From Thermodesulfobacteriota bacterium (GTDB lineage: Bacteria > Desulfobacterota > Desulfobacteria > Desulfobacterales > JARGFK01): 64,000 nt of DNA. The notes under the pieces were generated by a model. The model did not search any database, had not been told where the DNA came from, and saw nothing but the letters and a program-made list of their open reading frames with translations. Location of the stretch: positions 66,163 to 130,162 of the forward strand of contig JBFLWU010000007.1 in assembly GCA_040757625.1 (NCBI GenBank), written 5' to 3'. The position numbers and the translations under genes are program-made. The first letter of the stretch is position 1. The number at the start of each line of letters is the position of its first letter. Positions 3-59,177 of the stretch are shown piece by piece.

Positions 3-1574
3 AACCCCCTGCCGCCGTTTACCACCAGCAAGCTTCAGCAGGAGGCCATCCGCAAACTCGGGTTTACCGCCAAAAAAACCATGGTCATTGCCCAGCAGCT
101 GTATGAGGGCATCGATCTGGGACCGGGCGAGCCCGTCGGCCTGATTACCTATATGCGTACGGACTCAACCCGCATCGCGATGGAAGCGGCCCAGGAAGCG
201 CTCAAGCTGATCCAGAAGCAGTTCGGCGCCGAATACGTGATGCCCAAGCCCAGATTTTTTAAAAATCGCAATAAAGTCCAGGACGCCCATGAAGCCATTC
301 GCCCGACATCGGTATCGCATACTCCCGACGACGTTTCCGCTTTTCTTTCCAAGGACCAGCTGGCATTATACCGGTTGATCTGGCAGCGTTTTATCGCCTC
401 CCAGATGAAGGAGGCCCTCATCGATCAAAACTCCATTTCCATAAAAGCCGGCGCCTACGTGTTCAATGCCAGCGGTTCGTCCATCAAATTTCCGGGATTT
501 ATGGTTCTGTACCTCTCCGCCGACGACGAGATGGAAAGTGAAAAGAAAAAGGAGATGCTCCCGCCGCTTACGCCCGGAACGGCGCTGAACCTGAACAAAT
601 TCGAACCCAGGCAGCATTTCACCCTGCCGCCGCCCAGATTTTCGGAAGCTTCCCTGGTCAAGGAGCTCGAGGAAAACGGCATCGGGCGGCCCAGCACCTA
701 CGCCGCCATTTTATCCACCATCAGGGAAAAGGGTTACGTGGAACTGCTGAAAGGGTACTTCAAACCGACGGAACTCGGCTATATCGTTACCGATTTGCTG
801 GTGGAAAGTTTTCCCGACCTGCTGGATGTGGAATTTACGGCGAAAATGGAGGAGGATCTCGACCGGGTCGAGGCCGCCGAAGCCGATGCCACAGACCTAC
901 TGAGCCGGTTCTACGACCATTTTAAGGAAAAAATCGATGCGGCGTCCACCGATATGCTCAGCGTCAAGGGCGTCGGTTTTTCCACCGGCCTGGCCTGCCC
1001 GCAATGCGGCCAGACACTTCATATCAAGGTCGGAAAAAACGGCCACTTCCTGGCCTGCAGCGGCTACCCGAAGTGCACCTATTCCAGCGACTATACCCGC
1101 GATGAAAAGGGGATCATCCAGCCCGCCGGTGCCGTGGAGGCTGAAGTAACGGACAAGATCTGTGAAAAGTGCGGCAAGCCCATGGTGATCAAACAGGGCA
1201 AATTCGGCCGCTTCCTGGCTTGCAGCGGCTATCCGGACTGCAAAAATACCCAATCCCTGAATTCAAACGGAAACGGCCAGGATACCGGCGTCGCCTGCCC
1301 CCGGGAAGGCTGCGACGGCCATCTGCTGGAAAAAAAATCGAAGCGGGGCAAAATCTTTTACGGCTGCAACCGTTTTCCCGCCTGCAGTTTTGCGATCTGG
1401 GACAAGCCGGTCGCGCGCGACTGCCCCCGCTGCGGCGCCGGACTGCTGGTGGAAAAATCGAACAAGAAACAGGGAAGCTTCTATCTCTGCCTGACGGAAG
1501 GCTGCGATTATAAACAGAAACAGGGATCAGAAGTCGGGGATCAGGGATCAGAAAGAAAGGCTGAAGGGAGATAG
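3..1574 (+). CDS. topA: DNA topoisomerase I, C-terminal ~520 aa (5' end lies outside the window)
   Basis: The frame is open from nt 3 (NPLPPFTTSKLQQEAIRKLGF... then MVIAQQLYEG, a conserved TopA core). The C-terminal part carries repeated Cys4 zinc ribbons (CPQCG, CEKCG, CPREGCDG, CPRCG). The last ~17 codons run into heptamer-repeat DNA. Confidence 0.95.
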   Translation, partial: NPLPPFTTSKLQQEAIRKLGFTAKKTMVIAQQLYEGIDLGPGEPVGLITYMRTDSTRIAMEAAQEALKLIQKQFGAEYVMPKPRFFKNRNKVQDAHEAIRPTSVSHTPDDVSAFLSKDQLALYRLIWQRFIASQMKEALIDQNSISIKAGAYVFNASGSSIKFPGFMVLYLSADDEMESEKKKEMLPPLTPGTALNLNKFEPRQHFTLPPPRFSEASLVKELEENGIGRPSTYAAILSTIREKGYVELLKGYFKPTELGYIVTDLLVESFPDLLDVEFTAKMEEDLDRVEAAEADATDLLSRFYDHFKEKIDAASTDMLSVKGVGFSTGLACPQCGQTLHIKVGKNGHFLACSGYPKCTYSSDYTRDEKGIIQPAGAVEAEVTDKICEKCGKPMVIKQGKFGRFLACSGYPDCKNTQSLNSNGNGQDTGVACPREGCDGHLLEKKSKRGKIFYGCNRFPACSFAIWDKPVARDCPRCGAGLLVEKSNKKQGSFYLCLTEGCDYKQKQGSEVGDQGSERKAEGR

Positions 1575-1741
1575 GCAGAAGGTAAAAAAAATTGTGAGCT
1601 ATAAGCTTTTAACTGGAAATACAGACGGAAAAGTAGGAAGTAGGTAAATTAAACCGTCGCAGTGAGCAGAGGTCAAGTAACGTTAACCTTCAGCCTTCGG
1701 CCTTCAGACTATTTTCCTGTTTTTCAGATTACAAAAAAACC

Positions 1742-3651: not shown

Positions 3652-3806
3652 GTGAAAGGCTGAAGGCGGACAGTCTGAAGGTCAAAGGGATAGTAACGAG
3701 TATATAGTGACTAGGGACGAATGGCTCGCGGGCAGACAACAGACAGAAGGAAGAAGGCCCTGACCTTGACCTTATCCTTCAGTCTTCAGCCTTCAGCCTA
3801 TTTACC
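3652..3806. repeat. intergenic heptad-word palindromic element (exemplar)
   Basis: About 16 consecutive words ending in AG, mostly 7 nt (gtgaaag gctgaag ... acaacag acagaag gaagaag), are followed by complementary CT-initial words (cttcagt cttcagc cttcagc) and the end motif ctatttacc. Confidence 0.7.
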
Positions 3807-3889
3807 TGAACACTGGGAAGCCAAGAATTAAAAATCAGTTTCAGGCTCATGATGGTGAATAAAAAATAGATGAATGAAGGAAACAGATT

Positions 3890-5575: not shown

Positions 5576-5576
5576 A

Positions 5577-5718
5577 ATAGACTAAAGGCCGAAGGTGGTG
5601 GATAGGTGGAAGGTTGAAAGGATAGCGACGAGGAACAAATGGCGAGTAGGCAGAAAGCAGCCGGCTGTCGTAACGAGCGGTAATATAAGTCTTCAGTCTT
5701 CAGCCTTCGGTCTAAATG
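5577..5718. repeat. intergenic heptad-word palindromic element
   Basis: Left part: aaaatag actaaag gccgaag ... gtggaag. Right part: tcttcag tcttcag ccttcgg tctaaat. It shares the core GAAGG..GGATAG(Y)RACGAG with element 3652-3806. Confidence 0.65.
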
Positions 5719-5796
5719 CCTGACCCCCCTCCTGCCAACGGGAAATGGGAATATGAATTTAAGGATTTAAACGAACACAGCAGAAGGAATATCATC

Positions 5797-6285: not shown

Positions 6286-6332
6286 AAATTGAGAATTGAA
6301 GATTGAAGACTGAAAATTGTGAATGGAGAATT
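6284..6332. repeat. 7-bp periodic purine-rich tandem array (GARAWTT x7)
   Basis: agaaatt gagaatt gaagatt gaagact gaaaatt gtgaatg gagaatt, immediately after the ilvN stop. Confidence 0.8.
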
Positions 6333-6492
6333 GAGGGCCGGAGGGACAGGAAGAAGGACTTATTTTTTTCCGCGCGCCGTGTGCCGTCTGCCTTGCGCCG
6401 GACCTTATGGGGAAACCCGCTGTTTAAGAAAATGAAACTCGCTACATCAACCGTTTTCAAATAAAATATATTTTAACGACAAGGAGGACAAA

Positions 6493-7545: not shown

Positions 7546-7910
7546 CCGCCCGTTTATTTTTGACGGGATCGACAGGATTTTCAGGATAATTCTTATCGTT
7601 ATTCACGGCTTCCAGAAGAAACCGTGAACATATAATCCGCCGGGGGCTGAAAGAAGTTTTTCGAGAATGACGAACAAATGATCTGTTCAGCCCAAAAACA
7701 AATACCGGCGGGGAAAACCAGGGACGGCCTGCTCCGATCAGCGGTCGAATCTTTCTGCCTGCCTTCAGGGCAGGCAGAAAATCCCTGTTCATCCTGTCAA
7801 TCCTGTCAAAACAATTTATTGCAATGGCGGCATATTTAAACAGCTGGCGGTTTGAATGCGCCGGGTGAATGGGCGATTTTAAAAATTTACTATTTGGAGA
7901 CAACGACAAG

Positions 7911-9635: not shown

Positions 9636-9775
9636 GAGACCTTTGAAAAACGCCCCCTTTCGCCCAATTTCGGCGTCAGGCTCAAATGTTAATCCTCGAA
9701 ATACTCAATGTATTCCTGTGGTTAAAATTATAGCCTTCCTTGAATTTGAACGAAATTGGATATTTTTCAAAAGTC
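9636..9775. repeat. dispersed repeat, copy A (partner at 53739-53892)
   Basis: Roughly 75-80% identical by eye to copy B, with a perfect 22-mer GCGTCAGGCTCAAATGTTAATC at 9673-9694 (copy B: 53775-53796). Confidence 0.8.
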
Positions 9776-11638: not shown

Positions 11639-11848
11639 GCAGGGAAAATAGGCTGAAGACTGAAGGTAGATAGGCTGAAGGATAGTTGTCCGTAGTCCGC
11701 GGATAGAATTTCACCGGACAATGAACGACCTTTCGGTTGTATGCTCAAGGAAGGGCGGTAAACAATGGACAACAGAAGGCTGAAAGCCGCAAATGGTTAG
11801 TCCCGTCGCGCGGGATTGAACCTTCAGCCTTCAGCCTTCAGTCTGATC
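11639..11848. repeat. intergenic heptad-word palindromic element between convergent genes
   Basis: Left part: aaaatag gctgaag actgaag gtagatag gctgaag gatag. Right part: ccttcag ccttcag ccttcag tctgatc. Confidence 0.7.
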
Positions 11849-11857
11849 ACCAACCGG

Positions 11858-12952: not shown

Positions 12953-13366
12953 AAGCTGTTCTCCTTTCGATGATTCGGTAGCACCTGTAACACACAGGAA
13001 AATTCAATAATTCAGGGATCGGGGAGTTTTTCAAACGTTGTCCTGTCAGCCCGGGGATAGGCCCCGGCACCTCAGTTAATTATGCCATCCTTACCATACT
13101 TGCAACCGCTTCGTCGATAAAAATTTAAATCGGGGATCAGGGGTCGGTTTCCGGGGAGCAGAAGTCTGGATTCAGCCGGGTAGAATACGTTATCATTATC
13201 TTCCGGTGGCCTTGTTTTCGGATTCTTATCTCCTGTGATGAAATCTTTCAGCTTTTCTCATCCCTGATCCCTGACACCCGGTTCCTTCTCAAGCGATTGG
13301 ATAAAATTTTCAGGTTGTGATAGTAAAATGAAACACTCAAGTGAATAAACAGAAAACGGAGGCGCC

Positions 13367-14266
13367 ATGAAAAGAATTCTGGGAATAATCGCTTCCCCGC
13401 GCAAGCTGGGGAACTGCGAAATTATGGTTAAGGAAGTCGGCCGTCAAATCACGACGCCGCATGAATTGCGTCTGCTGCGCCTTTCGGAATTCAATCTGCT
13501 GCCCTGTCGCGGATGCTACGCCTGCCTGTTCAAGGAGGAAAAATGCATCCAGAATGACGATTTCCAGCAGGTGCTCGACGCCATCCTGGAAGCCGATGCC
13601 CTGATTGTGGCCGCCCCCACCTATTTTCTGGGCGCCAATGCAACTTTAAAGCGGCTTCTTGACAGGGGACTCGCCTTTTATGCCCATATCGATAGGTTGT
13701 GGGGAAAACCGGCTGTTGGGATCGCCATTGCCGGTATTGCCGGTAAAGAGGGGCATGCCCTCCTGGGAGTTCAAAATTTTTTAAAGATGTCCCTTACGGA
13801 TATCAAACAAACCCGAATCTGTTACGGGGCCCTTCCCGGCGAGGTCTTTTTAAACGGCCCGAACCGGGCGGCCGCCGCCGACCTGGCCGCGGCCCTCTTT
13901 GCGCCGGCACCGCGCAAAACAGGACCCGTCTGCCCCCTGTGCGGCGGCGATACCTTTCGTTTTTTGGGAAAGGATCGGGTTCACTGCCAGCTCTGCAGCA
14001 ACCCGGGAATCCTCCGCCTGGAGGCGGACGGGCCGGTGTTTGATATTCAAAAAAGCGGGCATGAACTTTTTTTAAGCAAAGAAGAGGCCCTGCATCACAA
14101 GGAGTGGCTGCTGCAGATGAAGGCTCGTTACCTGGACCAGAAGGAAAAGCTCAAGGAAATCACGCTGGCGTACCGCAAGCCCGAAGACTGGATCAGACCG
14201 GCTGAAGTACAGGTGTCAGGGGCCGGGGATCAGAAAAAAACTGAAGGTGAACGACTGGAGGTTTAG
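13367..14266 (+). CDS. iron-sulfur flavoprotein (Isf / NADPH-dependent FMN reductase-like) with a C-terminal zinc-ribbon extension
   Basis: Flavodoxin-like N-terminus (ILGIIASPRKLGNCE), the compact Cys motif CRGCYACLFKEEKC (CX2CX2CX7C) and the extra CPLCGG...CQLCS. The tail codons derive from repeat words. Confidence 0.65.
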   Translation: MKRILGIIASPRKLGNCEIMVKEVGRQITTPHELRLLRLSEFNLLPCRGCYACLFKEEKCIQNDDFQQVLDAILEADALIVAAPTYFLGANATLKRLLDRGLAFYAHIDRLWGKPAVGIAIAGIAGKEGHALLGVQNFLKMSLTDIKQTRICYGALPGEVFLNGPNRAAAADLAAALFAPAPRKTGPVCPLCGGDTFRFLGKDRVHCQLCSNPGILRLEADGPVFDIQKSGHELFLSKEEALHHKEWLLQMKARYLDQKEKLKEITLAYRKPEDWIRPAEVQVSGAGDQKKTEGERLEV

Positions 14267-14307
14267 GTTGAGGTTGAGGTTGAGGTTGAGGCTAAGGTTG
14301 AGCTTCA
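14260..14307. repeat. hexanucleotide tandem repeat (GGTTGA)n, 8 units, 4 of them perfect
   Basis: ggttta ggttga x4 ggctaa ggttga gcttca. It overlaps the TAG stop of the flavoprotein gene (14264-14266). Confidence 0.9.
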
Positions 14308-14485
14308 GCTCCCGATCCAACCCCGGCTTCAACCTTTTACTTCCCGGCTTCCCCGCCTTAAACCGACAGCCGTCGGCCTTGCGCCGTGCGCCTTGAGTCT
14401 TTTTCTTCTTACTGCTTCCTGCCTGCCGTATACTCCCTCCTGTCTTTCTCACCCGCAACTCGCAACACGCCTCTCACCGACCGCT

Positions 14486-16075: not shown

Positions 16076-16306
16076 GGCGTAAAATATTGATACCCGTAGG
16101 TTGTTGCCCGTTGTTCGTTGAAGCGCTATCCACGTACGACCGGATTGCTGCTTACTGCTTACAGCCGACCCCCGGCTTGCCCCTGACTTCTGTATCCTGA
16201 CACCGATCCCGCACCGCTACCGGTAACCCGTAACGCGCAGCCGGCCATTTGCCGCTTTCACCCGTTACGATTTCCCTTCAGCCTTCAGTCTATCCGCCTC
16301 CAGCCT

Positions 16307-18106
16307 TTAATAGTAGTACCAGATCGACCGGTAGTCGGCCAAATTTTCGCCCCGGCCTTTCAATCTTTTTAAATAATCATAGATCGGGACATCCGTGTAT
16401 ACATAGGTATCGGCCAGCGACAATTGCTTTTCCCAGGGGTGAAACTCATAGACCCTGCTGCCGTCGGGCAGAATGGAAATGACATCATGGTGCTGGGTGG
16501 CACGCAGGTAGTTTTTTCCCAGACCGGGGACGTTGAAGACGATTTCATCGGTCCGGTCGGTCCCCGGCAGGAGGCGGGCTTCCTCCTTCTGCTCCTGCAG
16601 CAGACGTGCAATCGGCACCCGGTAATCGTCTGTTTCCTCCTTGCCTTTGGTGTTAAAGGTATAGTAGGGCGTCACACCGATTAAACGCAGCCGGTGGCGC
16701 AGGGCAGCAGCTTCGAATTTTCTGGAATTGTAGAAGGTATAAACGAGCTGGTTGTATACCTCGATGCCGTAGCGGCGAAATTTTTGAACCGCCGCCATTG
16801 CCTGGGGCGTAATTTCGTATGGATGCTCGAAATGGGTCACGATGATGATTTCACGCTTGCCGGGATGATGGAAATGATTGATGTCCCGCACCAGGGAATC
16901 GGTAATGCGCTGGGGCAGCGTCACCGGGGTGCGGGTGCCGATCCGAATCCGGTCGATGTGTTTAATGCGCGACAGCCGGTATAACAGGTTTTCTATTCTG
17001 GCATTTGACAGTAGCATGGGATCGCCGCCGGTGATAAGGACCTCGCTGATCTCCGGCGTTGCAGCGATCCATTCAATCGCTTTTTTCAGCTTTTCCTTGG
17101 GCAGGGTTGCGGCCGGCGAATATACGTCTTCGATTTCCCAGTTGCGCTGGCAATACACGCAGATTTGCGGACAGGTCAGCATGGGCTTGAGAATCACAAT
17201 CCGGGGATAGCGCCGGGTAATGCCCTCGATGGGTGAAGTGTTCCGCTCCAGCATGAAATCCATCGAGCACTCGGAAGCATCTCTGAGTTGTTTCAACGTT
17301 TGAACATAATGAAGGGTTGGAATCACCTGGGCCCGCAGAGCCGCATCGTTGCCGTTAACGGATTGATGGTCGAGCAGCGACAGGTAATACGGCGTGATGC
17401 CGAAGGCGATTTTATATTCACGCGCCAGTTTAACGGCCTGATACTCCTCATCCGATAGTTTGACGAGCGCATTCAGGGTTTCAGCGTCTCTGACAATGTG
17501 CCGGGTCTGCCACTGCCACTGATCCCATTCAAGTTCGGTGGCGCCGAAATGCTTCAATATCCGGGCCTTGTGGCTGATTCTGTAGCGAATCACATCGTGA
17601 TCCAGCCCATGGGGATACCGTTTCAGGAATGCATCGGCCGAAGCGGCCATGCGCGAGAGATCGGCGGATCGTAAGATTGCGGCCCTGCGCCCCTCGTATC
17701 TTGTAAACGCCGGAATCTTATCGGGATAAATTCCGGCCCTGCCCACAACGCCCTTGATCAGGTGCTCCACTTCGGCCAGAAAACCGGGCCCGGGATCAGG
17801 CTGATCCTTTAGATCGAACCCGTTTAGAAGGGCGTCGATATACCTCAGGAAACTGAATCCGGCCAGCTGTTCACTGCGAACCGACAAGATATTGCGAAAC
17901 ACGCCGATGGCATCGCGGGTTAAAACCCATTCCAGCGGTGGAAGAGCGGGGTTGTCTTCAAATGTCGCCATCAGCATATCCGATAAAAGCATTTTGATTT
18001 TTTTTCTTTTGGCTTTGACGGGCTCCCTTGAAATAAAGATGGATGCAAGGGCGGGTACCTGATGTACCAGTTGAACCAGTTTTTTTCTGGTACTTTCAAT
18101 TTTCAT
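16307..18106 (-). CDS. KamA-family (lysine 2,3-aminomutase-like) radical SAM protein with a ~250 aa N-terminal extension
   Basis: CPQICVYCQR (CX3CX2C) followed by the KamA-like EVLITGGDP and RIGTRTPV. The length is 599 aa. Confidence 0.85.
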   Translation of the reverse strand: MKIESTRKKLVQLVHQVPALASIFISREPVKAKRKKIKMLLSDMLMATFEDNPALPPLEWVLTRDAIGVFRNILSVRSEQLAGFSFLRYIDALLNGFDLKDQPDPGPGFLAEVEHLIKGVVGRAGIYPDKIPAFTRYEGRRAAILRSADLSRMAASADAFLKRYPHGLDHDVIRYRISHKARILKHFGATELEWDQWQWQTRHIVRDAETLNALVKLSDEEYQAVKLAREYKIAFGITPYYLSLLDHQSVNGNDAALRAQVIPTLHYVQTLKQLRDASECSMDFMLERNTSPIEGITRRYPRIVILKPMLTCPQICVYCQRNWEIEDVYSPAATLPKEKLKKAIEWIAATPEISEVLITGGDPMLLSNARIENLLYRLSRIKHIDRIRIGTRTPVTLPQRITDSLVRDINHFHHPGKREIIIVTHFEHPYEITPQAMAAVQKFRRYGIEVYNQLVYTFYNSRKFEAAALRHRLRLIGVTPYYTFNTKGKEETDDYRVPIARLLQEQKEEARLLPGTDRTDEIVFNVPGLGKNYLRATQHHDVISILPDGSRVYEFHPWEKQLSLADTYVYTDVPIYDYLKRLKGRGENLADYRSIWYYY

Positions 18107-19609: not shown

Positions 19610-20162
19610 TCTTCCTTGTCCCGGTTGAAACAATAATAGCTTTCGAACCGATACGACGTTTCGGCTCTTTTTCCCGCTTATTTCATGAAAAATTTTTTTC
19701 AGCCAGCTGAAAAAATTATGATAAGGGCCGTTTAGACACGAATACGGGGCAAATATAAAGGGTACAAAATGTTACTTCATTTGGAACAAGAAAAACAACT
19801 GAAAATTTTCACCCATCGGACGCAGCGCATTCGCCCATTTGCTGCGTTATCCGGGGCGTGCAAATGAACGAATGCACTTCGTGAAATAACCGGATTAATC
19901 CATGATCATATTTAAGCGCTTGGGGGTGCGGATTTTCGTTGGCTGCGCCTGATGAGATGGCGGCTGAAATGGATTGAAAAAGGATGGCTCAAAAAAAGGA
20001 AAATGCGCAAAACTGCCGAAACCTGTATATGATTGGAAAATAAGGTTTCCACGGGCTTGCGCCCGTGGTTATTTGCTGATGATCATGCTTATCAATGCGT
20101 GATAAAACGAGTCGCAAAATCACCGTCGTTCTCGGCCGTGCCGGCAACAGCGGCAGTCGGTC

Positions 20163-20444
20163 TTAAAATCGTCTCGGTTTAAACGGTTTTTTTGCGCGTT
20201 TGCCCCCCGGGTTCGCCGGGTTTACCTTGATATTCTTCCCTTCGATGAGTTTCCCGTTTAAGGCCTTGATCGCCTGGTCCGCTTCCGAATTGTTCGGCAT
20301 TTCCACGAAACCGAAACCTTTCGATCTGCCGGAAAACCGGTCCATGATGATTTTGGCGCTTTCAATTTCGCCGAACTCGGCAAACAGTGCTTTTAATCCG
20401 TCCTCGTTAAGGCTGTAAGCTAAATTGCCCACATAAATATTCAT
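20163..20444 (-). CDS. RRM-type RNA-binding protein
   Basis: RNP2 IYVGNL, RNP1 KGFGFVEM, and a basic tail. Confidence 0.88.
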   Translation of the reverse strand: MNIYVGNLAYSLNEDGLKALFAEFGEIESAKIIMDRFSGRSKGFGFVEMPNNSEADQAIKALNGKLIEGKNIKVNPANPGGKRAKKPFKPRRF

Positions 20445-20509: not shown

Positions 20510-20553
20510 TTGAAAAAACAAAGGGCACTCCTCCCCTTTCGAAGGAATGCCCT
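20510..20553 (-). terminator. rho-independent terminator downstream of the cold-shock gene
   Basis: The minus-strand stem AAGGGCATTCC / GGAGTGCCCTT has one G-U pair and is followed by TTGTTTTTTC. Confidence 0.65.
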
Positions 20554-20572
20554 TTTGAATCAGAAGCCGGAA

Positions 20573-20773
20573 TTAGATCACCGTGACATTCACAGCTGCA
20601 GGACCTTTTTGTCCTTTTTCAATGTCGAATGTAACCCGGTCGCCTTCTTTAAGGGATTTAAAGCCTTCCGCCTTGATTCCGGAATGGTGCACAAACACAT
20701 CCGGACCGCCTTCCTGCTCAATAAATCCGAATCCTTTTCGATCATTAAACCATTTTACAATTCCCTCTGCCAT
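20573..20773 (-). CDS. cold-shock protein (CspA family)
   Basis: [18 protein letters not shown] and VFVHHS. The RBS AGGAGG lies 8 nt before the ATG at 20773. Confidence 0.92.
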
Positions 20774-20948
20774 AATCACATCCTCCTTTCTTGAATTTTC
20801 AATGTCTCAAACTGGAGGATGCCGCACCGGCAAACGAAAAGTTCCTTCAGAAGGAAACGTTCCTGCCCTCTTTGAAGCAGGCTTGAATAGTGATTGATAT
20901 TATCCGCTCTTATAACAGAATGCAAGCTAATTATTTATTTTTTTAAAA

Positions 20949-23737: not shown

Positions 23738-24029
23738 GATTGTCTCCTTTCAATATTGATTCAAAACATTAACATTCGTATTGCCATAAAGACTTTCTGA
23801 CTTTAGCAGGATGATTGATAGACTGGGCGAAAGGCACAAGGCGCACGGCGTACGGAAAAAGCGCATCCCCTCTTTCCTTGAACCGTGGGTCCCTATCCGT
23901 TAGCCATATTTGCCCACTGCTTACTGCCTGTTATTCACTTCTCCCCAATCCCTCTAACCCGCGACCTGCAACCCGTAACGCGTCATTATTATTTACTCGT
24001 TGCTGTTCCCCCTGTACCCAGATCCCTTC

Positions 24030-24560
24030 CTACGGGGCCATCCGCTTAATCGCCTCCATATACTTCTTTTTCTTGCAGCGCGGGCAGGTGGACAAGAGCG
24101 CCGCGATCTCTTTGCGACTTTCCAGGTTCACCAGATATTCCAATTCTTTTTTCGGCATCAGATACCCGCCGCAATCCGGGCACGTGACCGCATAGCGGGT
24201 ATGCCCGCGCTGCAGCATATACGCTCTAAGGTCCGTCATAAAACTTTGAAACAACACCCCGCTAGGGCAGTAAAACGTGCATTCTTCGCAGGTCAGGCAG
24301 AACCAGAAGGCCTCGTCGCCGACTTTGTCGGGTTCAAACAGGATCCGCTCCACAATCGCCCGGGACGACCGGCCGTAATCGTATCGACCGTAAAGATTTA
24401 CCATCGGACAAACGGCAGAGCATTTGCCGCACTCTAAACACAGGTTGAGGCGATAGTCGCTTTTGAATTTCTCGATGCTGCCCCGCTCAAATACCGGTAT
24501 CTGTTTTTTAGCTTGCGATTTCATAATCTTTAGGTGTTTAGCCTGAAGACTGCAGGCCAT
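24030..24560 (-). CDS. HdrC-like 2x[4Fe-4S] protein with a C-terminal zinc ribbon
   Basis: CLECGKCSAVCP and CLTCEECTFYCP, plus CPDCGG...CPRC. An alternative start exists at 24524. Confidence 0.7.
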   Translation of the reverse strand: MACSLQAKHLKIMKSQAKKQIPVFERGSIEKFKSDYRLNLCLECGKCSAVCPMVNLYGRYDYGRSSRAIVERILFEPDKVGDEAFWFCLTCEECTFYCPSGVLFQSFMTDLRAYMLQRGHTRYAVTCPDCGGYLMPKKELEYLVNLESRKEIAALLSTCPRCKKKKYMEAIKRMAP

Positions 24561-24694
24561 TGTTATTGCCTTGTCTTTCGGTTCACATTACCACGATGTC
24601 CGTTGTTTGCTGTCAGTTGTTCGTTGAAACCCTGCTTCGGACAACTGACTTTCAGCCAATCTCTTTCAGCCTTCAGTCTATTTACCTCCAGCCT
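24561..24694. repeat. intergenic heptad-word palindromic element between hdrA-like and hdrC-like genes
   Basis: The left end tttagcctgaagactgcagg (reaching into the 5' end of the longer hdrC-like ORF) matches the right end ctttcagccttcagtctatttacc. There is an internal 12-bp stem gtcagttgttcg / cggacaactgac. Confidence 0.6.
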
Positions 24695-26401
24695 TTATGT
24701 CCGATGCCCCTCCATGCCGGCGCCCACCATGGCCAGGATCTGCTCGTCCGTGAACCCTTTTAACTGCAATGCGCCGCTGAGGCACGATGCTGCGCATAAG
24801 CCGCACCCCTTGCATTCGGTCGAGTTTACCCGGGCGATCCGCACGGTTCCGCCCTCGGAATTTCTGGATTCAATCCAGCCTACCGCGCCGAAGGGGCATA
24901 TTTCAACGCACCGGCCGCAGGCTGAACACCGCAGGGGATTGACCTCGGACGTAAAGGCTTCGGTGACCACCTGCCGCCGGGCCATGGGAACCGCGGCCTT
25001 GGCCGCCGCCGCATACCCCTGGGCAACGCATTCCGAAATATCGGTGGGATACCGGGCGCAGCCCGCGATAAAAATCCCGTCGGCAGGAAACTCCACCGGT
25101 CGGAGCTTTTGATGGGCCTCCATAAAAAAGCCTTCATTGCCCAGCGGAATCTTCAGCATCCGGGACAGCTGCCGGTTATCCTTTGCCGGCACCAGCGGCG
25201 CCGTCAAAACCACCAAGTCGGTCTCCAGGGCAGCCTTTTTGCCCGTCAGTTCATGGATAACCGTTACCTTGCCGGCTTTATTTTGGGCGCCGGTTATCCG
25301 AGGCGGCTGCTCCCGGTTGAAGCGGATGAATTGCACCCCCAGGGAAAGCGCTTTCTGGTAATATTCCTCAAAGATCTTCCCGCAGGCCATCACATCCCGG
25401 TGCAGCACCCTGACTGAGGTTTCGGGCCGCCTTGACTTTATCAGGCTCGCGTTCTTCATGGCCGTTACGCAGCAGAAGCGGCCGCAATAGGTCCGATCCT
25501 GGCTGCGGGCACCCACGCAGTTGATCATGACGACCTGAGTAAAACCGTCATATTTATTTTTAAGACGCTCTTCCAGTTCAAGCTGGGTAATCACATTTGA
25601 GAAACGGCCATATCCCATCAGCCCGTGAGGTTTGAGTTCCTCTGCGCCCACCGCCACAATGATGGTGCCGATATTGAATTCTTCGTCCTGTCCATTCAAC
25701 CGCACAAGCGCCGTAAAGTTTCCGATAAATCCTTTGACGGCCGCCACCTCAGCCTGGAGGTGCACGCGAATGTTGTCATGCCGAGAGACCGCCTCGACCA
25801 GCGGCGTCAGCAACGCGGCGGCGGACTGATCGGACGGAAAAAGGATGTTGACGTTCTGCAAAAGCCCGCCCAGGCGGTTTTGCTTTTCAACGAGCTCCAC
25901 CCGGTAGCCCTGATTGGCCAGGGTCAGGGCGGCTGAAAGACCTGAAACGCCCCCACCGATAACCAGAGTAGCCGGTGTTACCGCCGTGGACTGGTCCTGC
26001 TGGGAGGTCAGCAGGCTGACCTTGGCCACCCCCATTCGAACCAGGTCCTTGGCCTTGGCGGTGGCTTCCACCGGCCGCCCCAGGTGAACCCAGGAGCAAT
26101 GCTCCCTGAGATTGACAAATTCAAAGAGATATTTATTCAGACCTGCCCGTTCGCAATTCTTTTTAAAAAGGGGTTCATGGGTCCGCGGGGTGCAGGAGGC
26201 CACCACCACCCGGTTGAGGTTCCGCTCTTTGATCTTATTGCGAATGGCGGAAAGACCGTCCTCTGAACAGGTATATAGATTCCCCATGGCGCAAACGACG
26301 TTGGGCAACGTTTCGGCATACCTTACCACCTCGGGCACGTTGACCGTACCCCCGATATTGGTTCCGCAGTTGCAGACAAAGACGCCGATTCTAAGAGACA
26401 T
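24695..26401 (-). CDS. hdrA: HdrA-like FAD/FeS protein (heterodisulfide reductase subunit A family)
   Basis: N-terminal IGVFVCNCGTNI, GGGVSGLSAAL FAD fold, and C-terminal ferredoxin CSACGRCVEICP / CKGCGLCAASC. The ATG at 26401 has a GGAG RBS. Confidence 0.85.
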   Translation of the reverse strand: MSLRIGVFVCNCGTNIGGTVNVPEVVRYAETLPNVVCAMGNLYTCSEDGLSAIRNKIKERNLNRVVVASCTPRTHEPLFKKNCERAGLNKYLFEFVNLREHCSWVHLGRPVEATAKAKDLVRMGVAKVSLLTSQQDQSTAVTPATLVIGGGVSGLSAALTLANQGYRVELVEKQNRLGGLLQNVNILFPSDQSAAALLTPLVEAVSRHDNIRVHLQAEVAAVKGFIGNFTALVRLNGQDEEFNIGTIIVAVGAEELKPHGLMGYGRFSNVITQLELEERLKNKYDGFTQVVMINCVGARSQDRTYCGRFCCVTAMKNASLIKSRRPETSVRVLHRDVMACGKIFEEYYQKALSLGVQFIRFNREQPPRITGAQNKAGKVTVIHELTGKKAALETDLVVLTAPLVPAKDNRQLSRMLKIPLGNEGFFMEAHQKLRPVEFPADGIFIAGCARYPTDISECVAQGYAAAAKAAVPMARRQVVTEAFTSEVNPLRCSACGRCVEICPFGAVGWIESRNSEGGTVRIARVNSTECKGCGLCAASCLSGALQLKGFTDEQILAMVGAGMEGHRT

Positions 26402-36672: not shown

Positions 36673-37473
36673 ATGACGGAAGATACTCCTCTTATCCTAT
36701 TAGTGGATGATGAGAAAAAATTTCTGGATACGATTTCGGACAGGATCCGACTCAAGGGGTATGAGCCGCTGCTGGCCACGAGCGGCGCCGAAGCCCTGGA
36801 ACTTGCCCGCCGGCACAGGATCTATGCCGCCGTGGTGGATCTCAAGATGCCGGACATGGACGGCCTGGAAACCATTACACGGCTTAAAGAAATCCATCCC
36901 TCCATCAAAACGGTGCTCCTGACCGGATTCGGTGATGAGAAAGCCCGAGAGGCTGCAACAGCCCTTGATACCTCCTATTTTGAAAAAGACGACATGGGCA
37001 GTTTTTGGGATTTCATCAAACTCCCTGTTAAAAAGAAAGTGAATATCCTTCTGGTGGATGATGAGAAAAAGTTTCTGGATACCCTTTCCGGCAGAATACG
37101 CCTGAAAGGTTTCGAGCCGCTGCTGGCCACGAGCGGCGCCGAAGCCCTGGAACTTGCCCGCCGGCACGAAATCTATGCCGCCGTGGTGGATCTCAAGATG
37201 CCGGACATGGACGGCCTGGAAACCATTACCCGTTTAAAGGAAATCCATCCCTCCGTCAAAACGGTGCTCCTCACCGGGTTCGGTGATGAAAAAGTCCGGG
37301 AGGCCGCGGAAGCCATCGCTTCCGACTATTTCGAAAAAGACCGCATGAGCGGGTTCTGGCAGTTCATCAAAAAACTACAGAAAACGCTTGAAGACAGTAT
37401 GGCTGCCGCCGGAATGTCCGACGGCGATACGGAAGGCGCCGCCAAAATTTCTAAAAAGAATAAAGGGGCATGA
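36673..37473 (+). CDS. tandem double-receiver (REC-REC) response regulator with no output domain
   Basis: Two complete REC domains (LLVDDEKKFLDT...VVDLKMPDMDG...) form a 117-codon internal duplication. Confidence 0.85.
   Translation: MTEDTPLILLVDDEKKFLDTISDRIRLKGYEPLLATSGAEALELARRHRIYAAVVDLKMPDMDGLETITRLKEIHPSIKTVLLTGFGDEKAREAATALDTSYFEKDDMGSFWDFIKLPVKKKVNILLVDDEKKFLDTLSGRIRLKGFEPLLATSGAEALELARRHEIYAAVVDLKMPDMDGLETITRLKEIHPSVKTVLLTGFGDEKVREAAEAIASDYFEKDRMSGFWQFIKKLQKTLEDSMAAAGMSDGDTEGAAKISKKNKGA
36694..37395 (+). repeat. 351-bp intragenic tandem duplication (2 units)
   Basis: The offset is exactly 351 nt (GTGGATGATGAGAAAAA at 36703 and 37054). A ~116-nt stretch from 36763 / 37114 is identical except for 3 mismatches within a single 4-nt block. 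Confidence 0.9.
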
Positions 37474-53738: not shown

Positions 53739-53892
53739 GAGATCTTTGCAAAATATCCCTTTCATCCAATTTCTGCGTCAGGCTCAAATGTTAATCATCG
53801 ATTCCCCAGTGTATCTCCTGTGATTAATCCCGCCCAGGCGAGATCGCTGCTCTTAAACTTGAATGAAACTGGCGTTTTTGAAAGGTTTCAGC
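53739..53892. repeat. dispersed repeat, copy B (upstream leader region of the MFS gene)
   Basis: See copy A at 9636-9775. The identical 22-mer lies at 53775-53796. Confidence 0.8.
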
Positions 53893-58881: not shown

Positions 58882-59177
58882 TATTTTTGGAACCCTTCTG
58901 ATCGGGACATGTCTCCGGGGTGCAGCTGTACTTCGCGTACCGCAAACCCCGGATAACGCAGCAGATGGGCAAATGCATTTCGCCTCCAGGGTGAAAATTT
59001 TTCAAGCATTTGTCTTTCTCAATAGAGGGAACAATGTGCAACTCTGGATTTTACATCAAATTTGAATCGAACCGACTGTTATCTTAATCTTTGTAAAACT
59101 TGCTTAAAAATTTTCATGAAATAATCGGGCTGAGTTTCACATCCGCAGATTTGGACAACTGAGGCGGCCGCAAACCG

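Follow-up and report, generated by a model that had tools for sequence, protein, structure and literature searches.

Contig JBFLWU010000007.1, from an uncultured Desulfobacterales bacterium of sulfate-reducer type, contains palindromic elements built from degenerate heptamer words that occupy the gaps between its genes. We found them in a 64-kb stretch of this contig, the whole of which we call the window. We conclude, with a probability of about 0.6, that these elements are open reading frame (ORF)-less members of a widespread family of palindromic cassettes of the intervening sequence (IVS) type. In its full form, the cassette appears to consist of two inverted arms of tandem RCTNNAG(G) heptamers around a small gene for a PF05635/TIGR02436 four-helix-bundle protein (S23p), which we take to be a distant relative of Avd. 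Since the elements have their ends in common with the S23p cassette, they are most likely its gene-less selfish relatives and not a new regulatory code. A first-pass annotation had described the DNA that follows ilvD (element B below) as one copy of a homologous repeat family of degenerate heptamers, laid out as palindromes and filling both intercistronic gaps and gaps between convergent genes. That description held, and all of the sites it listed are present.

We identified five complete elements (A to E) and one half element (F), with (CTGAAGG)n and (CCTTCAG)n arms (Table 1; L-numbers below denote comparison loci or contigs from other genomes). The elements measure 140-220 bp, have inverted ends, and contain no conserved ORF, as is typical of miniature inverted-repeat transposable elements (MITEs). 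The inverted terminal repeats seen in the first pass are real and longer than originally drawn, reading GGTAGATAGGCTGAAGG ... CCTTCAGYCTAWWWACCTGA. In element B, words ending in AG, most of them 7 nt long, run over 3652-3756 and give way to complementary CTTCAG words from about 3760, with CCTATTTACCTGA as the end of the element; this agrees with the original parse into AG-ending words, then CTTCAG-type words and a final ctatttacc. The internal core that B was said to share with C (GGATAG[YR]ACGAG ... AATGGC ... GGCAGA) is present in both. Element E also exists, with its left limit further out than first placed, at about 24535, just 5′ of the likely start of the next gene. The (N5AG)n regularity that had drawn attention to these sequences is best explained by RCTNNAG(G) words.

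As predicted in the first pass, the 7-nt periodicity of the window exceeds that of shuffled sequence. For all intergenic DNA of the window, the lag-7 match was 0.294 compared to 0.261 after shuffling (z 7.3), and lags 14 and 21 were raised too, while coding DNA showed period 3 only. Element B contains 10 AG-AG pairs at lag 7, where 1.6 are expected and the highest of 500 shuffles reached 7. Allowing up to 2 mismatches, CCTTCAGNCTTCAG has 14 matches; the expectation is 1.25, and no more than 5 were seen in any of 100 shuffles. Tandem Repeats Finder reported nine or more intergenic period-7 arrays, at 1521, 1687, 3776, 5688, 6287, 11821, 13260, 16148, and 16275.

The arms also pair as expected. 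Elements A to E close into terminal stems of heptamer arms of about 25-30 bp, and F, in which the complementary right arm is absent, has one arm only. RNAfold z scores were -2.4 to -6.9 for A, B, D, and E (B, -3.0; D, -6.9) and weak for C (-0.7). In a read-through transcript, the stems would certainly form.

The first pass recognized no described family, and Rfam covariance models indeed gave no match at gathering score over the 64 kb and none on the elements even at E ≤ 1 (positions 1-26000). Nevertheless, the elements are not without described kin: the same arms bound PF05635 cassettes, the IVS of Coxiella has the same anatomy, and heptamer sites have been catalogued in Geobacter. A scan for the exact arm pattern, using one genome per species, returned at least 120 loci, with some single matches expected by chance; compared to the window, these loci show no homology outside the repeats. 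Among the matches listed, 29 of 127 match clusters contained CTGAAGG and CCTTCAG within ±300 nt, forming the same hairpin. Hosts of paired arms among these matches included Nitrospirota, Verrucomicrobiota, Desulfobacterota, Geobacterales, Acidobacteriota, Gemmatimonadota, Kiritimatiellia, and Bacteroidota, as well as others, and across these phyla the listed arm loci often had in common an end motif, ...CTCAGGTRKWTAGRCTGAAGG / CCTTCAGYCTAWWYACCTGAG... Such a motif, 17-20 nt long, recurs at many loci in several phyla.

Three loci (L001, L028, and L033) have a complete PF05635 gene, of 117 aa, between the arms or words related to them. Its product matches PF05635, "23S rRNA-intervening sequence protein" (E 1.2e-33), TIGR02436, "four helix bundle protein" (E 2.3e-33), and the XCC0516 pentamer (PDB 2GSC, 5 chains; E 5e-26). 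The match to Avd of diversity-generating retroelements was weak and below cutoff. N- or C-terminal ORF remnants lie between the arms at L081 and L094, and at L100 a remnant lies directly beside a CTGAAGG array. In other genomes, full cassettes occur alongside versions with a truncated ORF or none.

We also examined the association from the protein side. We fetched 80 metagenome PF05635 loci, 70 of them with both flanks, and scored how well the 110 nt on the 5′ side of each gene complement the 110 nt on its 3′ side, counting genes with z > 3. Complementary flanks were present for 71% of the 70 PF05635 genes (median z 6.85) compared to 5% of 103 other ORFs at the same loci (median z 0.04). The PF05635 flanks are 7-periodic (lag-7 match 0.37 and 0.42, versus 0.26 at other lags), and the cassette words reach the start codon, supplying a Shine-Dalgarno-like AGG core. 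All proteins at least 77% identical to that of L001 have CTGAAGG arms, and more distant ones have CTGTAGG, CTGTTAG, or CTGGAGG. Since arm words track protein relatedness, arms and gene evolve as one unit. Cassette and arms travel together across phyla. The cassettes sit between co-directional genes in sense orientation, with the PF05635 gene oriented with both neighbors at 24 loci and opposed to both at 3.

Two further observations come from the comparison loci. A PF05635 cassette of L164 (about 1400-1950) has arms of TTAGGGA / CCCTAAC words that resemble telomere repeats, indicating that the arm word varies freely. In a Nitrospirae metagenome-assembled genome (MAG), CCTTCAG-type arrays lie past the 3′ CCA end of two tandem tRNA-like sequences (L005, 5800-6150), and in a Verrucomicrobiota MAG a CTGAAGG hairpin adjoins a tRNA gene (L066, 1417-1560). 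The elements therefore also colonize tRNA-gene flanks.

The window copies resemble these cassettes at their ends. Element D contains the cassette end motif GGTAGATAGGCTGAAGG exactly, near 11665-11681 in its left arm, and the right end of element B is the cassette right end CTCAGGTAGATAG within 2 mismatches (reverse complement of the end of B, TTCAGGTAAATAGGCTGAAGG). The cassette end sequence CTCAGGTRGATAGRCTGAAGG ... CCTTCAGYCTAAAYACCTGAG is present in window copies, with its outer part, GTAACTACTCAGG, missing or degenerate. The copies also have the AG-rich 5′ heptamers and complementary 3′ words of the cassette, and A to E have terminal inverted repeats for a stem of about 20-30 bp. In a pairwise alignment, the 3′ ends of B and C match the last codons and the right arm of the cassette at L143, a similarity that is only suggestive. 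Since no PF05635 ORF lies between their arms, we call the window copies ORF-less relatives and not cassettes, a status that we infer from their ends and from the full, truncated, and empty versions that coexist in other genomes.

To follow the elements over short distances, we compared the ilv gaps of the window with those of four close relatives (L121 [assembly GCA_029211065.1], L122, L123, and L124) that share gene order and agree at about 70% of third codon positions. Uncultured Desulfobacterales are the closest relatives, at 94-95% IlvB identity. In the ilvD-ilvB gap, a CTGAAGG element is present in the window, L122, and L123, (GCAGTAG)7 in L121, and (GGGTTGC)5 in L124. The ilvB-ilvN gap holds element C in the window, 50 nt with a fragment of the internal module only in L121, another CTGAAGG element in L122, and GGGATCA words in L124. 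Between ilvN and ilvC are AATTGAG words in the window, CTGAAGG hairpins in L121 and L124, and a GGGATCA hairpin in L122. In every case, the ilv gap sequences part company at the stop codon, and the divergent stretch runs to about 60-90 nt from the next start. As different word families, or almost nothing, occupy the same gap at 94-95% IlvB identity, turnover is rapid. Among close relatives, the ilv operon has undergone gain, loss, and exchange of copies, in each case from the stop codon on; this is the presence/absence polymorphism that the first pass predicted.

Where orthologous copies persist, conservation is confined to the arms, which slightly exceed synonymous sites in this respect. Between element B and its counterpart in L122, the arms are about 81% identical, compared to about 70% identity at third codon positions, and the interior is less conserved than synonymous sites. 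Likewise, comparison of element D across three genomes (the window, L121, and L122) revealed that the arms are kept and the interior is not.

The elements begin where coding ends. In 9 of 9 cases from the window and its relatives, they start 0-10 nt past the upstream stop codon, and the left arms contain stop codons in all three frames within about 10-50 nt. In two cases the ORF enters the repeat: the topA ORF runs 17 codons into element A, ending at the TAG of GAGATAG (1572-1574), and an FMN-reductase ORF runs about 20 codons into the 14212-14485 tract (14212-14266). Both genes have lost stop codons that are present in relatives and have acquired repeat-encoded C-terminal tails, QGSEVGDQGSERKAEGR and AEVQVSGAGDQKKTEGERLEV. 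On the sense strand of the flanking genes, the interior is purine-rich, with G exceeding C, in every case. We withdrew an earlier orientation cue, that the purine arm always follows the upstream gene, as this is true of both strands of any palindrome. For the same reason, a purine arm followed by a pyrimidine arm says nothing about orientation, which only the composition of the interior defines.

We propose that the elements spread as selfish DNA, by a route that would resemble transposition or recombination. Their arms may grow and shrink through slipped-strand mispairing, with complementarity kept by hairpin-templated correction. Their tolerance may be due to the stops that they contain in every frame and to a sense strand rich in G and poor in C, to which Rho should not be recruited. 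The elements are probably co-transcribed with the host operon, and RNase III is likely to cut the 25-30 bp mRNA stem, by analogy with the cleavage demonstrated in rRNA IVSs. Such a cut would split or destabilize the polycistronic transcript, as a side effect rather than as designed regulation.

A trans-acting partner can also be imagined. The rings formed by HutP and TRAP read spaced NAG triplets, with a spacing of 7 nt for HutP and 5-6 nt for TRAP. The toroidal PF05635 pentamer might read RCTNNAG words on single-stranded nucleic acid and thereby mobilize, copy, or maintain both the cassette and the ORF-less hairpins, an idea that we regard as speculative and quite unlikely. If true, it would amount to a system like that of the REPINs (repetitive extragenic palindromic [REP] doublets forming hairpins) and RAYTs (REP-associated tyrosine transposases), driven by a protein without a known transposase fold, and would account for the role of the "IVS proteins."

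Several observations weigh against the assignment to the cassette family. Neither the window nor about 70 kb of relatives L121-L125 yielded a PF05635 ORF or remnant in searches with tblastn, jackhmmer, and a start-region motif, and descent from the cassette therefore has to be argued from the ends alone. The window copies share modules and ends and lack the full-length near-identity of MITE copies; moreover, the gene linked to the arms matches no known transposase, such as a parent element of a MITE would encode, and we know of no transposase or nuclease activity for PF05635. No clean empty site or target-site duplication was found among the relatives compared, so mobility can only be deduced; at the ilv gaps no duplication is definable, and even the 50-nt gap of L121 keeps its module fragment. 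The case for RNase III cleavage of the elements is made by analogy only. In addition, arm mismatches are symmetric, with 69 G·U and 78 A·C in cassettes and 13 and 11, respectively, in ORF-less copies, and thus carry no signature of RNA-specific selection. The symmetry is consistent with arms that are maintained as DNA, by way of inverted ends, slippage, and hairpin-templated correction.

A last point of this kind comes from phage-like contigs (IMG/VR 3300042519_001582 and 3300042884_000653). Single (CCTTCAG)2-3 arrays follow CTAACAG in short gene gaps of L277 (570-600 and 4100-4370), L233 (3320-6370), and L249. The arrays stop a few bases short of start codons lacking a Shine-Dalgarno sequence, with no inverted partner and no PF05635 gene, and thus heptamer words also exist outside cassettes. 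In position they resemble the TAACTGA arrays 5′ of start codons in Beggiatoaceae.

We weighed four other explanations. The elements could be intercistronic RNA hairpins that benefit the host in the manner of REPs or bacterial interspersed mosaic elements (BIMEs), by protecting 3′ ends from exonucleases or by differential decay or processing of the ilv and other operon transcripts. This would account for stable stems that begin at stop codons inside an attenuator-controlled operon and for arms that are more conserved than synonymous sites. All 10 of 10 elements have a sense strand rich in G and poor in C, and in 9 of the 10 this strand folds better than its antisense counterpart, which could be read in the same way; since G-rich composition explains the folding advantage, we dropped it as evidence for RNA selection. 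A beneficial hairpin is also hard to reconcile with the unrelated words, or almost nothing, that fill the same gap at 94-95% IlvB identity, with unconserved interiors, with symmetric G·U and A·C mismatches, and with an element (F) that lacks its partner arm. We consider host benefit unlikely as the primary explanation. As a secondary, exapted effect, it is compatible with descent from the cassette.

It is less probable still that the elements are simple sequence repeats (SSRs) that arose by slippage in place, resembling long SSRs or the short tandemly repeated repetitive (STRR) sequences, with no mobility and no link to a gene. Under this explanation, the heptamer is the unit that slippage favors most, and templated correction turns the arrays into quasi-palindromes. 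The 7-nt period does run through the interiors, the copy numbers of words vary, and the symmetric mismatches are as expected. Moreover, heptamers are, according to work cited in PMC4679880, the most abundant class of prokaryotic long SSRs, and their number differs between Coxiella strains (PMC4990558). Slippage in place does not, however, predict the same 17-20 nt end motif at many loci in several phyla, the specific association with PF05635 (71% versus 5%), the wholesale swapping of word families at one site between close relatives, or the overwriting of native stop codons.

We found it highly improbable that the elements are arrays of binding sites for a trans-acting protein, either a DNA-bending protein such as IHF or HU or a HutP-like ring that reads NAG at 7-nt spacing. 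NAG does recur with a 7-nt period, the tandem words come in paired sets similar to the Geobacter class 1-3 sites (PMC2700814), and the cassette protein is a toroidal homopentamer (PDB 2GSC; PMC4990558). Yet the words differ widely within one genome (CTGAAGG, GGGATCA, GGGTTGC, GCAGTAG, and AATTGAG), the sites adjoin unrelated genes with no visible regulon logic, and word number is not fixed; any binding is putative. Finally, we rejected Rho-independent terminators or attenuators: although the stem-loops lie directly past stop codons and those of A and B precede short U-containing stretches, a scan found no GC-rich hairpin with a loop of 3-8 nt and a U-tract at the elements and an overall count at shuffle level (35 versus 28.5 ± 5.7), C, D, and E have no U-tract, and the operon that contains B and C has its real attenuator at 1801-1970.

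Elements A to F are only part of the repeated DNA in the window (Table 1). Other heptamer word families occur in its gaps, namely AATTGAG (from 6286), GGGATCA/TGATCCC (from 1522, at 13150-13285, and from 14212), and GTTACGG/GCAGTAA (from 16100 and from 23800). The words GTTACGG and GCAGTAA are common to the 23800-24029 tract, element F, and the 14300-14485 tract. The same design is also realized with words of other lengths: a hexamer, GAGGTT (from 14258), and a 9-mer, TTGACAGGA (7562-7812). The array at 14258-14302 is this hexamer, (GAGGTT)7.5.

Table 1. Heptamer elements and related repeat tracts of the window
Feature	Position	Strand	Description
Element A	1522..1712	+	(CAGGGAT)4 words at 1522-1554; CTGAAGG-type left arm, 1555-1582; right arm, 1685-1712
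Element B (the stretch first annotated)	3652..3812	+	Left arm from the first base past the ilvD stop; internal module GGGATAGTAACGAG; right arm (CCTTCAG)3, CCTATTTACCTGA; terminal stem of about 28 bp; orthologous copy in L122/L123
Element C	5576..5724	+	ilvB-ilvN gap, directly past the ilvB stop codon
Heptamer tract past ilvN	6286..6410	+	(AATTGAG)7, then pyrimidine words CCGTGTG CCGTCTG CCTTGCG
Element D	11639..11852	+	Past the second leuA-like gene, in a convergent-gene gap; strongest fold (z -6.9)
Hairpin of another word family, same design	13150..13285	+	GGGATCA / TGATCCC type
Composite tract, convergent-gene gap	14212..14485	.	GGGATCA and CTGAAGG words, (GAGGTT)7.5, then about 100 nt of CTN5 heptads
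Element F (half element)	16076..16309	-	In gene sense: left arm TAAAGGCTGGAGGCGGATAGACTGAAGGCTGAAGG, heptamer-periodic interior (lag-7 match 0.46)
Heptamer-word tract past Fer4 gene	23800..24029	-	Purine-rich on the sense strand
Element E	24535..24697	-	In gene sense: from the upstream stop codon (TAA AGGCTGGAGGTAAATAGACTGAAGG) to GGCCTGCAGTCTTCAGGCTAAACACC, just 5′ of the probable start of the next gene

The 9-mer words belong to a second palindromic family, with arms TTGACAGGA / TCCTGTCAA and a conserved inner hairpin, TTCTGCCTGCC...GGCAGGCAGAA. Its site is the ilvC-leuA gap in the window and the topA-ilvD gap in relatives (L122, 7380-7700; L123, 2200-2530). The first 26 kb of the window contain the 3′ part of topA, an ilv leader peptide and terminator, ilvD, ilvB, ilvN, ilvC, two leuA-like genes, and several redox genes. 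The ilv-type transcription attenuator, at 1801-1970 and 5′ of ilvD, encodes a leader peptide of 29 aa rich in Leu, Ile, and Val (MKNGLALINLISLIIILVVGVLPFYEARG); a hairpin and T-run come next (aaaaaaaccgttatcagccctaagctgataacggttttttttt), and L121-L123 retain the region. On the minus strand, 20521-20861 gives a sub-threshold Rfam match to the cspA thermoregulator (RF01766; 60.9 bits, gathering score 78, E 2.5e-13). This stretch lies 5′ of a small ORF (20163-20444, minus strand) and is probably the mRNA leader of a cold-shock protein. Other repeats in the window are a 351-nt unit in tandem within a plus-strand coding region (36703-37371; 1.9 copies, 85% identical) and a dispersed intergenic 45-nt direct repeat (9655-9699 / 53757-53801, 91% identical) that is unrelated to the heptamer family. 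Two inverted repeats, each with copies 39 kb apart, also fall outside that family, one of 60 nt (19802-19861 / 58942-59001, 80% complementary) and one of 24 nt (19673-19696 / 59106-59129, 92% complementary).

The comparison with STRR sequences combined with a REP- or MITE-like layout, made in the first pass, was apt, and the differences are also informative. The Correia/NEMIS (Neisseria miniature insertion sequence) MITEs are short and ORF-less, have inverted ends, and are co-transcribed with their neighbors, and RNase III has been reported to act on their hairpins. From end to end, Correia copies are nearly the same, and they come with TA target duplications, unlike the elements described here, which share only ends and modules and for which no duplication was found. 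Cyanobacterial STRRs are direct tandem heptamers (CCCCAGT, TTGGTCA, and CAACAGT). The TAACTGA repeats of Beggiatoaceae, Cyanobacteria, and Bacteroidetes are likewise direct arrays and are mostly located just 5′ of start codons (PMC4679880). STRR and TAACTGA repeats resemble our elements in being intergenic tandem heptamers with stops in all three frames in one orientation and in a patchy spread across phyla that suggests horizontal transfer; they differ in that the words here (CTGAAGG, GGGATCA, AATTGAG, and others) form inverted pairs and have a linked gene.

REPs, BIMEs, and the REPIN-RAYT systems of E. coli and Pseudomonas (PMC3116915) are similar in comprising extragenic palindromes at gene 3′ ends and in operons, in being mosaic, and in combining many short copies with a repeat-flanked gene. 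Unlike REPs, which are single units of 20-40 nt with a 5′ GTAG, the elements have arms of tandem heptamers and the end motif GATAG. In addition, the product of the flanked gene is a four-helix bundle, whereas that of a RAYT gene is a Y1 transposase. No RAYT turned up among the window genes scanned, in an examination that was not aimed at RAYTs. In Geobacter metallireducens, paired tandem hepta- and octanucleotides between operon genes (proBA) have been described as "global regulator binding sites" of classes 1-3 and read as IHF/HU sites (PMC2700814). Like the elements, these sites are intergenic and pair two arrays of short words, one on each strand, with variable spacing, and class 3 consists of five heptamers, MTYCTGA. 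In this comparison, which is by description only, they differ in their words, and no PF05635 link is reported for them.

The closest known relatives are the 23S rRNA IVSs with an S23p ORF in Coxiella burnetii and Leptospira (PMC4990558). The Coxiella IVS has a 28-bp terminal inverted-repeat stem, in which RNase III cleaves, and, depending on the strain, two or three tandem GACAGAT heptamers 5′ of a decaying S23p ORF (PMC4990558). As in the elements, a terminal-repeat stem is combined with variable AG-rich 5′ heptamers and sense orientation in the host transcript, and a sporadic distribution that fits horizontal transfer is accompanied by decay or deletion of the ORF; full cassettes encode the same protein family. 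In contrast to rRNA IVSs, which occupy 23S helix 25 or 45, the window copies lie in mRNA intergenic regions and are ORF-less, multi-copy, and mosaic, and their excision by RNase III is putative. PF05635 genes have also been found wedged between cas genes (PMC3936711).

Palindromic extragenic repeats, IVSs, and heptamer repeats are thus each known already (PMC4990558, PMC2700814, PMC4679880, and PMC3116915). In the searchable literature, we found no report of heptamer-built inverted arms bounding PF05635 cassettes generally, beyond Coxiella or outside rRNA, none of such cassettes in sense orientation between protein-coding genes across phyla, and none of ORF-less versions forming much of the intergenic DNA of a Desulfobacterales lineage. 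To our knowledge, rRNA IVSs have lacked an explanation for some 30 years, as have the "four helix bundle / S23p" genes, which are very common. Our results suggest that rRNA IVSs, S23p genes wedged in operons (including cas operons), the paired heptamers of Geobacter, and the abundant hairpins of Desulfobacterales are one cassette family that colonizes transcribed intergenic DNA. Much of the "structured but hypervariable" intergenic DNA of these genomes would thereby have a concrete origin, and RNase III-dependent segmentation of operon mRNAs is predicted. The proposed origin also cautions against taking such repeats for regulators, or PF05635 genes for functional partners of their neighbors.

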